DNA from: Vulcanimicrobiota bacterium
Lineage (GTDB): Bacteria > Vulcanimicrobiota > Vulcanimicrobiia > Eremiobacterales > Eremiobacteraceae
Assembly (NCBI GenBank): GCA_963812135.1
Contig: CAWETU010000001.1
Location: forward strand, 512,001 to 576,000
Direction: 5' to 3'
DNA: 64,000 bases
The position numbers and the translations under genes were made by a program. Below, one piece after another: positions 40,049 through 44,553 of this stretch (within the stretch, counting starts at the first letter, position 1; each line of letters opens with the position of its first letter). The notes under the pieces were generated by a model that saw only the letters and a list, made by a program, of their open reading frames with translations, did not search any database and was not told the DNA's origin.

Positions 40049-40133
40049 GATGGTTCCCTCCTTGCGTTGTTCCGGCCATATCCGGAACTTGACCCAAGCG
40101 TACGCCCGCCGTCGCACCGTAGTTGTGAAAATG

Positions 40134-40628
40134 CTACAGCGAATTGCGACTTTCGGCGCGCTCGATCCGGAAATCATAGCAGCCAGCTTCAGTGTCGCGC
40201 ACATGGATGTAGTCCACATCCGGCCGCGCTAGCAGTCGCTCCACATGAGCGTCGATCGCCCCATTCGTGCCGTACGCTTGTGCGACAAGCCGTCGACCAC
40301 TGCTGTACGCGTTGAAGGTCAATTCGTGTGCGCGCAGGTCCGAAGGGAAGCCCGCCGTTTCCGGGTAGCGCTCGCAGGCACGCGAATGCACGAACACGGG
40401 ACCCGGCAACGGTAGGCGCTCGAGATCCGTAAACGGATCGTACGTGAAGAGGACGCGCGGCTCAGCGCCGACTACGAACTCGCGTAGGCAGTGCCGGCAC
40501 GGTCCGTACCCCTTCGCGACTTCTTCCGAGGCCGGATGGTCGTAGCGCGGCGAGCGCATCGTCGCGCGCACCGTTTCGACGACGTCTGTCGGAATCGCCA
40601 CCACGCGAACACCAAGATTCTCCATCAT
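40134..40628 (-). CDS. DUF1203 family protein
   Basis: GPCRHCL, YDPF, GPVFVH...C, RPDVDYIHVR...GCY; SD GGAGG; ATGA overlap with upstream ORF. Confidence 0.85.
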   Translation of the reverse strand: MMENLGVRVVAIPTDVVETVRATMRSPRYDHPASEEVAKGYGPCRHCLREFVVGAEPRVLFTYDPFTDLERLPLPGPVFVHSRACERYPETAGFPSDLRAHELTFNAYSSGRRLVAQAYGTNGAIDAHVERLLARPDVDYIHVRDTEAGCYDFRIERAESRNSL

Positions 40629-40816
40629 CCAAGCCCTCCGAGCAACAACTGGCCGGCGGCGACGAGCGCTCGCCCGAGACGCGTGCGCCAACGTACGAGC
40701 GCCGACGTCGTGTGATGTCGTTGCGCGCGCATCTTCGCGCCGAGCCGATGTCGCGCGATCTCTGCGCTCATCGCTTCATGCTGCTGCCTGACGAGATCCA
40801 ACACATAGCGCTCCAT
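40625..40816 (-). CDS. 63-aa Arg-rich microprotein B (paralog of 40870-41088)
   Basis: Ungapped alignment to its neighbour, 24/60 identical; stop coupled to DUF1203. Confidence 0.7.
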   Translation of the reverse strand: MERYVLDLVRQQHEAMSAEIARHRLGAKMRAQRHHTTSALVRWRTRLGRALVAAGQLLLGGLG

Positions 40817-40869
40817 CGCTGCACACGACTGTATGATAGCCTGCGGCCGCGCTGCGGTTCTATCCGTTT

Positions 40870-41088
40870 TTACCGCAGCGCGTTCGCAGACTCGGACGCG
40901 CGTTCGTCACCCTCGATCACCCGACCGACACCGATGACGATGCGCCCCAAGGCGCGTCGCCAACGAGCGGCGACGCTTGGTCCTGACACGCGCCGTGCAC
41001 GCAATGCGATGCCCAGACGATGGCGCACGATCTCTTCGCGCACCTCATCCTGCCGCTCGCGTACGGCTCGCAACCAATCCCGATCCAT
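40870..41088 (-). CDS. 72-aa Arg-rich microprotein A
   Basis: Strong SD GGAGGTG; shares EI.RHRLG...RWR..LGR motif with paralog B. Confidence 0.75.
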   Translation of the reverse strand: MDRDWLRAVRERQDEVREEIVRHRLGIALRARRVSGPSVAARWRRALGRIVIGVGRVIEGDERASESANALR

Positions 41089-41121
41089 GTTCTCACCTCC
41101 CCTCTTGCCAGCGCGAGAGAG

Positions 41122-41160
41122 ATAAAACAACGAGGCCCCCGCTTAGTGCGGAGGCCTCGT
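41122..41160 (-). terminator. Intrinsic terminator (attenuator)
   Basis: ACGAGGCCTCCGC-ACTAA-GCGGGGGCCTCGT then TGTTTTAT. Confidence 0.85.
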
Positions 41161-41187
41161 CGGCATCGATTGGGTCTTGCGACCCGC

Positions 41188-41319
41188 TCACACACCGTTA
41201 AGCACATCTCCGCACGGAACGACGCTCTTCACGCTCGCATCGAGTGCAAGCGTGGCGCACAGCTGCGCGATCCCCAGCGGGGTCGCGTTCACTGTCAGCA
41301 GCGTCGTCATGTTGCTCAA
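41188..41319 (-). CDS. 43-aa putative leader peptide
   Basis: SD AAGGAG, 7 nt, TTG; MSNMTTLLTVNATPLGIAQLCATLALDASVKSVVPCGDVLNGV; lies between promoter and terminator. Confidence 0.6.
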   Translation of the reverse strand: MSNMTTLLTVNATPLGIAQLCATLALDASVKSVVPCGDVLNGV

Positions 41320-41378
41320 AAAATGTCTCCTTTGCTGTTTTTGCCGAACAAAATTCGGCGGCCACAACACAGATTGCC

Positions 41379-41407
41379 ATGGTAACACGCCTTTGCGAGG
41401 TTGTCAA
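41379..41407 (-). promoter_or_regulatory. Sigma70 promoter of leader peptide unit
   Basis: TTGACA-17 nt-TACCAT with extended -10 TG. Confidence 0.8.
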
Positions 41408-41433
41408 ACCCGCGCGCACGAAGCCGCGCGATT

Positions 41434-44400
41434 ATGCGCCGATTATTTGATGCAATCATAATGTCTGTCGTCGTGCTCAGCGTCGCTGTCCCGGTCTTAG
41501 CGGACACACAACCGTACGCCAATCTGAAATGGCGCGCGATCGGGCCGGCGCTCTCCGGCGGACGTGCCGCAGCGGTCGCTGGCACGGATGCTGATCCGCT
41601 TCTTTACTATGCGGGAGCGGCCGGCGGCGGCATCTGGCGTTCCGACGATGCGGGCTCGACATGGACCGCGGTCTACGAAGACTTGCCCGTCAACGCGATC
41701 GGCGCGATCGCGATCGCGCCATCAAACAAGCGCGTCGTCTGGGTCGGCACCGGCGAATCCAATCCGCGCAACGACATCTCGTGGGGCGATGGCGTCTGGG
41801 TCAGCACAAACGGCGGCTCTTCATGGCAGCACCGCGGTTTGGAAGCGACCGCGCACATCTCCAAGATACTCGTCGATCCGCACAATCCCAACATCGCGCT
41901 GGTCGGTGCATTGGGCGACATCTTCAAAGACAGCGAGGAGCGCGGTGTTTTCCGGACGGTTGATGGCGGCAAGACCTGGACGAAGACGCTGTACGTCGGT
42001 CCGAGCAGCGGCGCATCGGATCTATCGTGGGATCCAAGCCATCCGAACATCGTCTACGCAGGCGTCTGGCAGATCCGCCGCTTGCCCTGGTCGCTGGAGA
42101 GCGGCGGGCCCGCTGGCGGCGTGTATCGCTCGAGCGACAGTGGACAGACGTGGACCAAATTGTCGGGCAACGGATTGCCGTCGGGTGACACCGGCCGCAT
42201 CGGCGTCGCGGTCGCGCCCAATCATCCGAATCGCGTCTACGCGCTCATCCAATCAAAAGAGGGCGTGCTGTGGCGCTCGGACGACGGGGGCAATCAGTGG
42301 CGGCTCGTCAGCTCGAACACGCTGCTCAACCAGCGGCCGTTCTATTTCAGCCGGCTGGTCGTCGATCCGACGAATCCCGATCATTTCATCGCGCTCTCCG
42401 AGTACATGGCTGAAAGCCGCGATGGCGGGCGGACGGCGAAGAAGATCGCGAAAGCCATCCATGTCGACAATCACGACGCATGGTGGTCGCGCGACGGCCG
42501 GCGGCTGATCGATGCGAACGATGGCGGCGTCGCATGGTCGATGGACGGCGCGAAGACGTGGAGTGCGGCCTCTAATATGCCGATCGGGCAGATCTATAAG
42601 CTTGGCTACGATGAGCAGGTGCCGTATCACGTCTGCGGCGGCCTGCAGGACAACACGACTTTCTGCGGCCCGTCCAACAGTAACGACGCGGGTGGCATCC
42701 TCAATCGCGACTGGATCAGCGTCAACGGCGGTGACGGCAACTTCGTCTGGCCGGATCCACTGGACCCACAGCTGGTGTGGAACGCGACGGAGAACGGCAC
42801 GGTCTCTATCTTCGATATGCGCTCCAAACAGAACGTCGATGTGGAGCCGTACCCGCGCGACTTCAACGGCATGGCGATCGAAGGCGTCAAATATCGTTGG
42901 AATTGGACGACGCCGATAACATTCTCGCCGCAAGACCCGCACATCGCGTATGTGGGCGCAAACGTCGTGTTCAAATCAACGGACCGCGGCCGCCACTGGA
43001 CCCCGATCAGTCCGGATCTCACGCTCAACGACAAGGCGCATCAGCAGATCTCGGGCGGCCCGATCAATCCCGACGTCTCGGGCGCCGAGGTCTACGACAC
43101 GGTGACCGAAATATCGCCGTCACCGGTGCAAGCCGGCCTCATCTGGGTCGGTACCGACGACGGCCTGATCCAATTGACGAGCGACGGGGGAGACCACTGG
43201 AAGAACGTCACGATGTCCGGCCTTGCTCCCTACGGCTTCGTGCAGAGTATTGATCCGTCGACGCATGCGGCGGGCACCGCATACGTCGCGATCGACCGGC
43301 ACACGATGGGAGACCGCGCGCCGTACGCATTCGTGACCGACGACTACGGCGCTTCGTGGCGATCGATCGCGGCGAACCTGCCGGCGGACCAACCGGTGCG
43401 TGCATTGCGGCAAGATCCGCGCAACGCGAATATCCTGTATGCAGGAACCGAGCAAGGCATTTGGATCTCTTTCGATCGCGGCACATCGTGGCAGTCGATC
43501 AAGTTGAATCTGCCGACCGCCTCGGTGCGCGATATCCGCGTGCACCCAGTCGCCAATGATCTCATCATCGCGACGCACGGGCGCTCGATGTTCATCCTCG
43601 ATGACCTTGCGCCGTTGCAAGACCTCCAGCCGGCACAAACCGCCGGAACGTATCTGTTCCAGCCGCGAACCGCGTATCTGTGGTGGCAGTGGACGAGCGA
43701 AGACCTGCAAGACAGCACGGTACCCGCGAACGAGTTCGCCGGCGACAATCCCGACGTCGGCGTGATGGTCTCGTTCTATCTCGCCAAACCGGCGCCAAAG
43801 CGCCCGACGATCGATGTGCTGGACAGCAGCGGACATCTCGTGCGCCGCCTCACCGGTACGCATCTCGTGAGCGACAAGCCCGAGTATTACGTCACCAACA
43901 AATCGGGCGTCAACCGCCTCACCTGGAACTTGACCGAAACTGGACCGGTCAAGCGCCTGAGCGCGCCCGCGAAGTATCAAGGATCGGACGACGGCGCAGT
44001 CGTCGTACCAGGCACGTATACGATCGTGTTGCGAGCGAATGGCCGAACTCTAAGCCGCAGCATCAAAGTCGTGGCCGATCCACGTTCGCCCTGGTCGCAA
44101 GCGGATTACATCGAGCGCTATCATTTCGACGTCGAGCTCAACAACGAGTTGTCACAGATCGATACGGCGCTCAACTCGATCGACGCGATCAGGCGACAGA
44201 TCAACGCTGCGCTCAAACCGCTGCGTGCAGCGGCGACGCCATCACCGGTCGTCACGCAAGGCGACGCGCTGCTCGCGCGGCTGAGCGCGCTCGAGTCGGA
44301 GATGACGTCGAACCCCCACAACGACGAAGACAGCATCCTGTACGCGGATAAGGTGCGCGAACGGATCCTTGCACTCCAAGGGAACCTCAGCGAGTCGCAG

Positions 44401-44553
44401 CAACCGCCGTTCGCAGCGCATCGCGAGCAGGCAGACGAAATCCACGCGGACGTCGAGCGGGTCTTGGGCGACTACCAGAAGCTAGTCGCGACGGACGTCG
44501 CGTCGTTCAATGCCGCGCTGCGCGTGGCCGGGATCGCGCCGCTGAAGTCATAA
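41434..44553 (+). CDS. Secreted VPS10/BNR-repeat beta-propeller protein (putative glycosyl hydrolase)
   Basis: Signal peptide; WRAIGPA..GGR; many S/T.DGG.TW Asp-box repeats; GGLQDN; ATHGRS. Confidence 0.88.

Follow-up and report, generated by a model that had tools for sequence, protein, structure and literature searches.

On the minus strand of the window, the 64,000-nucleotide stretch of Vulcanimicrobiota DNA analysed here, a leader of ~250 nt places a promoter, a short open reading frame (uORF) and a terminator ahead of an arginine-rich microprotein gene. The question raised by this arrangement is what the leader senses and which genes it controls. The initial annotation, made from the sequence itself, had proposed a leader-peptide attenuator governing one operon of two microproteins (A and B) and a DUF1203 gene. 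Our data show that the attenuator is real and lineage-wide: its mechanism is known, the lineage is new and the effector has no name. Most probably the leader responds to a slowing of ribosomes by switching on microprotein A, which appears from comparison across genomes to be its only conserved target.

A leader ORF with a fixed stop

A check of the window sequence placed all leader elements on the minus strand, and the promoter, 5' hairpin, Shine-Dalgarno sequence (SD), 43-codon ORF, post-stop hairpin and terminator each lie exactly where the initial annotation had put them (Table 1). To these we add an extended -10 TG before TACCAT, absent from the earlier description. Of 2 promoter-like sites within 6 kb, this promoter scores best; shuffled sequence nearly equals that number (1.8), which is not significant alone. 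The whole leader, terminator included, has a more stable predicted fold than any of 200 shuffles (z -6.8). When we scanned the same genome for a short ORF followed by a terminator, we obtained 16 candidates; the window locus alone had a promoter match, and it had the top antiterminator score among the 16. Divergent from the leader lies a gene for a 1050-aa sortilin/VPS10-type beta-propeller protein (41401-44553, plus strand), syntenic in genera g1 and g6 only. In many genomes of a second family (L086, L090, L125-L130), inspection by eye places an opposite-strand tRNA gene next to the leader promoter.

Table 1. Positions of the leader elements and downstream genes in the window.
Feature	Position	Strand	Remarks
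Housekeeping-sigma promoter	41379..41407	(-)	TTGACA 41407-41402, 17 nt, extended -10 TG-N-TACCAT (TACCAT 41384-41379)
Predicted transcription start	~41372	(-)	
5' hairpin	41343..41359	(-)	Kept in the window's genus, optional elsewhere
SD AAGGAG (41332-41327), U run, TTG start codon of leader ORF	41317..41332	(-)	
Leader ORF (uORF), 43 codons	41188..41319	(-)	TTG 41319 to TGA 41190-41188; stop position conserved, peptide not
Antiterminator strand, leader codons 35-38	41208..41215	(-)	Pairs with 41153-41146
GGGTC-GCAA-GACCC hairpin just 3' of leader stop	41172..41185	(-)	
Intrinsic terminator, 13 bp (41160-41130) plus U tract	41122..41160	(-)	
SD and microprotein A gene, 72 aa, 24% Arg, two helices	40870..41100	(-)	ATG at 41088; conserved regulated gene
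Second promoter-like site	40833..40870	(-)	A-rich, CGGATAG box, 21 nt, TATCAT; between A and B
Microprotein B gene, 63 aa	40625..40816	(-)	Paralog of A (~40% identical); in 3/7 genus genomes
DUF1203 gene	40134..40628	(-)	Start overlaps stop of B; Pfam PF06718, E 1.7e-25

We compared 56 loci, 29 from the window's family and 27 from the second family, after dropping false profile hits (L091, L096, L098 and L132) and leaderless paralogs (L094 and L095). A strict parser handled 50 of the 56, the remaining six failing at the terminator step; because the loci are related, counts across them overstate independence and are not those of independent trials. All 50 strictly parsed loci have a TTGAC-N, 17-18 nt, TG-N-TAnnnT promoter and a terminator between the uORF and the regulated gene. 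The extended TG was present in 50/50 parsed homologs and in 19 of 20 blind loci, under a search pattern that did not demand it. An SD-linked uORF with a start codon (22-46 codons) was likewise found in 50/50 strictly parsed loci, and in 67 of 76 loci with a relaxed parser. Start codons across the class are ATG (30), TTG (14) and GTG (6) (n=50), with TTG in 7/7 genomes of the window's genus.

The position of the uORF stop is conserved. In a first run it lay 26-48 nt before the terminator core in 50/50 loci, while the other two frames had a stop within 20-50 nt in 1 and 12. Since that run sought the terminator only after the stop, we repeated the test with the terminator located first. With the relaxed parser, the SD-linked frame stopped 20-50 nt before the core in 67/67 parsed loci (76 given), against 2 and 16 for the other frames, where the +1-frame control is biased by stops near the start codon. 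Among 20 previously unseen loci, all 11 that were strictly parsed showed the same geometry, with 0 and 1 in the other frames. This anatomy, its conservation and the stop geometry can be read directly from the compared loci, as can the covariation described below.

The encoded peptide, by contrast with the stop, is not conserved. Ten close pairs of leaders differ by 29 synonymous and 106 non-synonymous codon changes, distributed 56/63/71 over the three codon positions, suggesting that the peptide evolves near-neutrally. Leader peptides cannot be aligned across genera, and the primary sequence of the leader is conserved at the promoter, SD, antiterminator and terminator only. The leaders compared contain no run of single-amino-acid codons, in agreement with what had been seen in the window peptide, and merely a mild excess of Met, Asn and Thr in codons 2-11. 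A 4.3x enrichment of Cys was discarded as a signal: with the antiterminator codons removed, it vanishes against base composition (0.71x). The initial annotation had singled out the P-C-G-D codons of the leader; we found the antiterminator in all three frames across loci, and the identity of these codons is therefore incidental.

Pairing within the leader and its probable response to ribosomes

Near the end of the uORF, GTGCGGAG (41215-41208) is the exact 8-nt complement of CTCCGCAC (41153-41146), as first reported, and this helix forms in the minimum-energy structure when the transcript is truncated 3' of the terminator loop. At the window locus alone the match is borderline: an equally long complement arose in 6 of 100 dinucleotide shuffles, and the duplex (p=0.19) is not significant by itself. 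We therefore drew its significance from homologs. When the entire leader is searched for the best complement of the terminator arm, this complement lies 10-45 nt ahead of the stop in 39/50 loci, with 11.1 expected. A fixed window outpaired the adjacent upstream window in 25/26 loci of the window's family, 20/26 of the second family and 15/15 blind loci, and the duplex reached p<=0.05 against shuffles in 19/26, 11/26 and 7/15, respectively. These comparisons point to a conserved antiterminator that overlaps the uORF and is mutually exclusive with the terminator, strong in the window's family and weaker in the second.

Covariation in homologs had been named at the outset as a check on this pairing, and we find it in the window's genus. 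An alignment of seven genomes that was not fitted to the pairing has 51/51 cells paired and one compensatory A-U to G-C change, a single change common to two genomes that was equalled in 33 of 500 shuffles. A second position alternates between A-U and G-C in another genus, and loop bases change along with the antiterminator. Family-wide, pair types vary at two positions; here the register was set by best complement, a choice that favours pairing, and MAFFT alignments shift the antiterminator by 2 columns from one genus to another, so that the family-wide pair types are not a formal covariation count.

We modelled the two alternative folds of the leader by computational folding. In transcripts cut just after the terminator 5' arm and carrying no ribosome, the antiterminator forms in 41/50 loci. 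Because it forms unaided, no protector (anti-antiterminator) helix is predicted, and an untranslated leader is expected to read through. When a masked ribosome was placed on successive codons, the antiterminator survived at every position as far as ~13 codons from the last and disappeared across about the following 12; the disappearance is partly a product of the masking, and the informative outcome is the missing protector helix. With the ribosome on the last codon it re-forms in 46% of the 50 loci in this model, which has neither timing nor pausing; timing and pausing must therefore matter. Overall, the folding predicts that read-through rises when uORF translation is impaired.

We propose that a strong constitutive promoter makes the leader transcript and that the first ribosome, if it keeps pace, would occupy the last ~12 codons as RNA polymerase reaches the terminator. 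The antiterminator strand would then be covered, and transcription would end within the U tract, near 41124. Were initiation or elongation slowed anywhere upstream, the antiterminator would instead pair with the 5' arm and loop of the terminator, and polymerase would continue into microprotein A. Possible causes of slowing include a ribosome-targeting antibiotic, uncharged tRNA, damaged mRNA or a shortage of ribosomes. The leader would act as a general speed sensor, not as a single-amino-acid counter or an arrest peptide. Its timing is perhaps set by the hairpin at the leader stop (41185-41172), a candidate pause site for RNA polymerase that may also form the inner helix of the antiterminator. 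Of 36 de-duplicated leaders, 17 have a hairpin at or around the stop that scores better than shuffles (p<=0.1), and just 11 have such a 5' hairpin. We infer both leader translation and the trigger. The ribosome-mediated attenuation put forward in the initial annotation is upheld, in its whiB7-type form, by the conserved stop geometry, the covarying antiterminator and the unconserved peptide. We consider it likely that the leader is a ribosome-dependent transcription attenuator working like that of whiB7/wblC, with general speed sensing as its input and microprotein A as its effector.

Three soil studies yielded RNA-library contigs from close relatives, which cover 41094-41358, 40989-41323 and 41024-41174. 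The last two bridge the terminator into gene A. These contigs show neither strand, level nor ends, and all may include DNA. No contig falls over 40116-40962, which is not evidence of silence.

Classical amino-acid attenuators (trp, his, leu, thr) also combine a leader peptide, a pause hairpin, an antiterminator and a terminator. The window leader shares these parts, counting its candidate pause hairpin, but lacks a single-residue run, a biosynthetic gene downstream and a predicted protector helix. We rejected an amino-acid biosynthetic attenuator on finding neither a regulatory codon run nor biosynthetic or aminoacyl-tRNA synthetase genes downstream. Arrest-peptide leaders of the ermCL/tnaC type have a conserved peptide motif; this class was set aside for want of such a motif and on the codon changes given above. 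The same attenuator might instead be tuned to Met, Asn and Thr (the aspartate family), which we regard as improbable. Compared with the same positions in 274 genes of the genome, a background of one genome only, the 36 de-duplicated leaders use more Met (OR 4.4), Asn (4.4) and Thr (2.2) in codons 2-11; Thr occurs in 36/36 of these peptides and Asn in 34/36, and the available account of the mycobacterial whiB7 uORF, Ala-rich and tuned to alanine, offers a precedent (bioRxiv 10.1101/2023.06.02.543512). Runs of one codon are nevertheless missing, the excess fades after codon 11 (Asn OR 1.4, Thr 1.2), A-rich codons near the start may be selected for open structure, and the regulated gene is not biosynthetic.

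Two further explanations dispense with the uORF as a ribosome sensor. A riboregulator sensing a ligand or protein, with the ORF incidental or secondary, would account for the strong fold of the leader and the unconserved peptide. We judge it very unlikely: the window has no Rfam match at gathering score and only six chance matches at E<=10, so that no known riboswitch or T-box was recognised by a covariance model; primary sequence is kept solely at the four elements named above; and an SD-linked frame with a fixed stop in every parsed locus is hard to explain without translation. Still less probable are two independent units, a constitutive sRNA or small-protein gene ending at the terminator and a microprotein A gene with its own promoter. 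A promoter-like CGGATAG-N20/21-TAnnnT site does lie after the terminator, ~80 nt before gene A, in 5/6 loci of genus g2 (L025, L026, L027, L028, L038), and leaderless microprotein paralogs exist behind a glyoxalase-type gene. Against such a division, the ATG of gene A in the window lies only ~34 nt past the U tract, leader and gene A remain adjacent in differing genomic settings across the two families, the antiterminator covaries, and two RNA-library contigs bridge the terminator.

The attenuator favoured here resembles known translation-sensing leaders to different degrees. In whiB7/wblC of actinobacteria, efficient uORF translation leads to a Rho-independent terminator and inefficient translation to an antiterminator (bioRxiv 10.1101/2023.06.02.543512; PMC7157823), and, as far as the available text of the former goes, the whiB7 uORF varies in length and sequence. 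By analogy, the window leader would share the variable uORF, the choice between terminator and antiterminator and read-through into a small protein gene. It differs in belonging to another phylum, in a target that is unnamed and lacks a cysteine cluster, and in a near-consensus promoter with no evident positive feedback; the likeness is one of logic and layout. A whiB7/wblC locus proper was rejected, as the genome contains no WhiB family gene (PF02467) and the microprotein has no Pfam match. The nearest precedent is in Sinorhizobium meliloti, where, in the part of the report available, tetracycline induces the gene of a small arginine-rich DUF1127 protein of unclear function by way of a uORF, in a Rho-dependent manner (PMC12218461). 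Both systems place a small arginine-rich protein behind a uORF, but S. meliloti uses Rho and a C-rich element early in the uORF, whereas the window leader has an intrinsic terminator and an antiterminator late in the uORF. From the accessible accounts, vmlR and other ABC-F genes have antibiotic-sensing uORF leaders (PMC9226507), and Escherichia coli toiL is uORF-based, with translational repression plus Rho (PMC12121999). The window leader would resemble these in uORF sensing of ribosome-targeting stress, and differs in that its target is no known resistance or toxin gene. The literature searched, which consisted of sources other than subscription journals, contained no report of this attenuator, and the DUF1203 literature found there was unrelated.

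Microprotein A and its distribution

The layout of promoter, uORF, antiterminator in the last codons, terminator and microprotein is conserved in two families of Vulcanimicrobiota (Eremiobacterota). At the DNA level, the leader matches 6/6 other genomes of the window's genus and 0/54 further relatives. Protein profiles detected gene A in 30/32 genomes of the window's family, two of the 30 being unpublished and left out of the analysis, and in 145/301 genomes of the phylum (139/295 without six unpublished genomes), a lower bound because just 20 candidates per genome were scored. By family, the counts are 17/19 and 127/220 in two families and 0/61 in the others. The gene is nearly always present in one copy per genome. 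In genus g11, which scored 0/20, two loci (L356 and L357, ~1470-1310, minus strand) keep the whole leader before a shortened, diverged gene of ~52-56 aa with a weak SD that profile searches had missed; eight other profile-negative genomes gave no match to the terminator pattern.

Close homologs of microprotein A, at up to 90% identity, carry the label Candidatus Eremiobacteraceae or Eremiobacteraeota, and named leader matches belong to Vulcanimicrobiota, Baltobacteraceae and Velthaea; together these names suggest Ca. Eremiobacteraceae as the source of the window. A DNA-pattern scan of GTDB returned at least 119 stretches, at least 8 of them with the microprotein downstream at E<1e-6; the six named among those microprotein-bearing matches listed are all Eremiobacterota/Vulcanimicrobiota. 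No plasmid match to the microprotein was found, nor was anything found in nine other actinobacterial, chloroflexal and other genomes. We excluded a Streptomyces look-alike in which only the first helix matches and no leader is present, and a 79-aa look-alike family recruited at E 0.16-0.69 only, whose homology is doubtful and whose loci (18 inspected of 48) have no leader. The genes of this 79-aa family, which we did not find in GTDB, come from metagenome loci (L252-L299), where by eye each is the first gene before ECF-sigma-like and methyltransferase-like genes, behind a conserved ECF-type promoter-like motif.

Across 30 members, the microprotein has 57-90 aa, 14-25% Arg, a net charge of +1 to +12 and an amphipathic second helix. 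Microprotein A belongs to no Pfam or NCBIfam family at cut-off, and the DUF1127 Pfam model matches 0/30 members at E<=1. A search of PDB sequences gave no match (best E 0.25). AlphaFold predicts two unpacked helices (pLDDT 77, pTM 0.32); the model has no Foldseek match, and the ESM Atlas returned unnamed clusters only, at 0.89-0.90. Composition and regulation tentatively suggest, at somewhat under an even chance, that microprotein A is a basic, helical binder of RNA or of ribosomes under translation stress, a guess with no homolog of known function in support. We rank this ahead of binding to a membrane surface and of partnership with a regulator, each of which seems rather unlikely. In two loci of genus g3 (L094 and L095), a leaderless paralog follows what by eye is a glyoxalase-type gene, transcribed away from a WYL/YafY-type regulator that was likewise recognised by eye; a palindromic operator-like site lies between the glyoxalase-type gene and the regulator, and in L095 short tandem repeats follow the gene.

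Leaders that sense ribosome slowing usually control genes that deal with slowing, such as WhiB7 and ABC-F proteins. Here two families of a soil phylum that is abundant but barely cultured retain such a sensor for one gene of ~65 codons without a family name, and this makes microprotein A a strong candidate for a new translation-stress factor. A bolder reading, possible though we would not bet on it, is that microprotein A founds an unrecognised family of translation-stress effectors, which would bind the ribosome for rescue or protection or, in a lineage that lacks WhiB, act as a master switch comparable to WhiB7. A whole class of soil bacteria would then retain this single-copy protein behind its own ribosome-speed sensor and would have wired it more than once into methylation-damage (Ada) and WYL regulons. 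Were that true, mRNA alkylation, ribosome stalling and intrinsic antibiotic tolerance would be linked. Should the microprotein prove incidental, the finding would reduce to one more independent attenuator in the style of whiB7, of use but not out of the ordinary.

Microprotein B, DUF1203 and a second promoter-like site

The single operon of two microproteins and DUF1203 under attenuator control is not supported. Downstream of A in the window's genus, microprotein B is present in 3/7 genomes and DUF1203 in 5/7; among the other loci of the family for which downstream sequence exists, DUF1203 follows in 0/19. B and DUF1203 are additions at the level of the genus, and they stand behind a promoter-like site of their own (40870-40833). 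The initial annotation had held that a separate downstream promoter would count against its proposal, and for these two genes we find a promoter-like site of that kind.

The pattern AAAnCGGATAGA-N19-21-TAnnAT has 12 matches in the genus and 0 in a reversed control. Seven lie at the window locus and five directly before a gene combining AraC and O6-methylguanine methyltransferase domains, so that the box stands upstream of an Ada-like gene in 5/7 genus genomes, as in an Ada/Cada2 regulon. One such copy (G000:C1:812065-812101, L056) precedes an Ada-like gene, starting near 812111, whose product begins at the AraC helix-turn-helix and has no N-terminal four-cysteine domain. Among 20 DUF1203 loci of the family, 13 have a site of this kind within 260 nt upstream, 10 with the exact CGGATAG. 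A looser pattern, CGGATAG-N20-22-TANNNT, shows no genome-wide enrichment over its reversed control; in our reading of the sequences, only position and the longer pattern (12 versus 0) carry weight for the second site. The site resembles the Cada2 B+X box as presented in the available text (PMC10957082), with CGG after a GCAA-like A-rich stretch, and differs in a spacer of 3-4 nt and a box extended to CGGATAG.

From these matches we consider it probable that a separate methylation-damage promoter drives B and DUF1203, that DUF1203 is a member of an Ada-type regulon serving the adaptive response to alkylation, and that an Ada-like regulator reads the second site. In the window's genus, the paralog B and DUF1203 would have been added behind a separate promoter of this methylation-damage (Ada-type) regulon. 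DUF1203 would thereby gain its first functional context, the Ada-type methylation response. Read-through from the attenuator may reach B and DUF1203 too. The CGGATAG site before gene A in genus g2 is a possible second input to that gene; 0/5 Ada genes of that genus carry the box, which, like the missing enrichment of the looser pattern, speaks against the Ada link.

Three further DUF1203 loci, in genus g4 (L314, L317 and L318), have a full-length Ada-type gene directly 3', with its N-terminal cysteines recognised by eye. At the end of gene A in the window, a 9-bp inverted repeat (40880-40848, minus strand) with no U tract encloses the CGGATAG box and is not obviously kept in relatives. An Hsp20 gene (40048-39572, minus strand) follows DUF1203 in this genome only, and RNA-library contigs cover Hsp20 apart from the leader.
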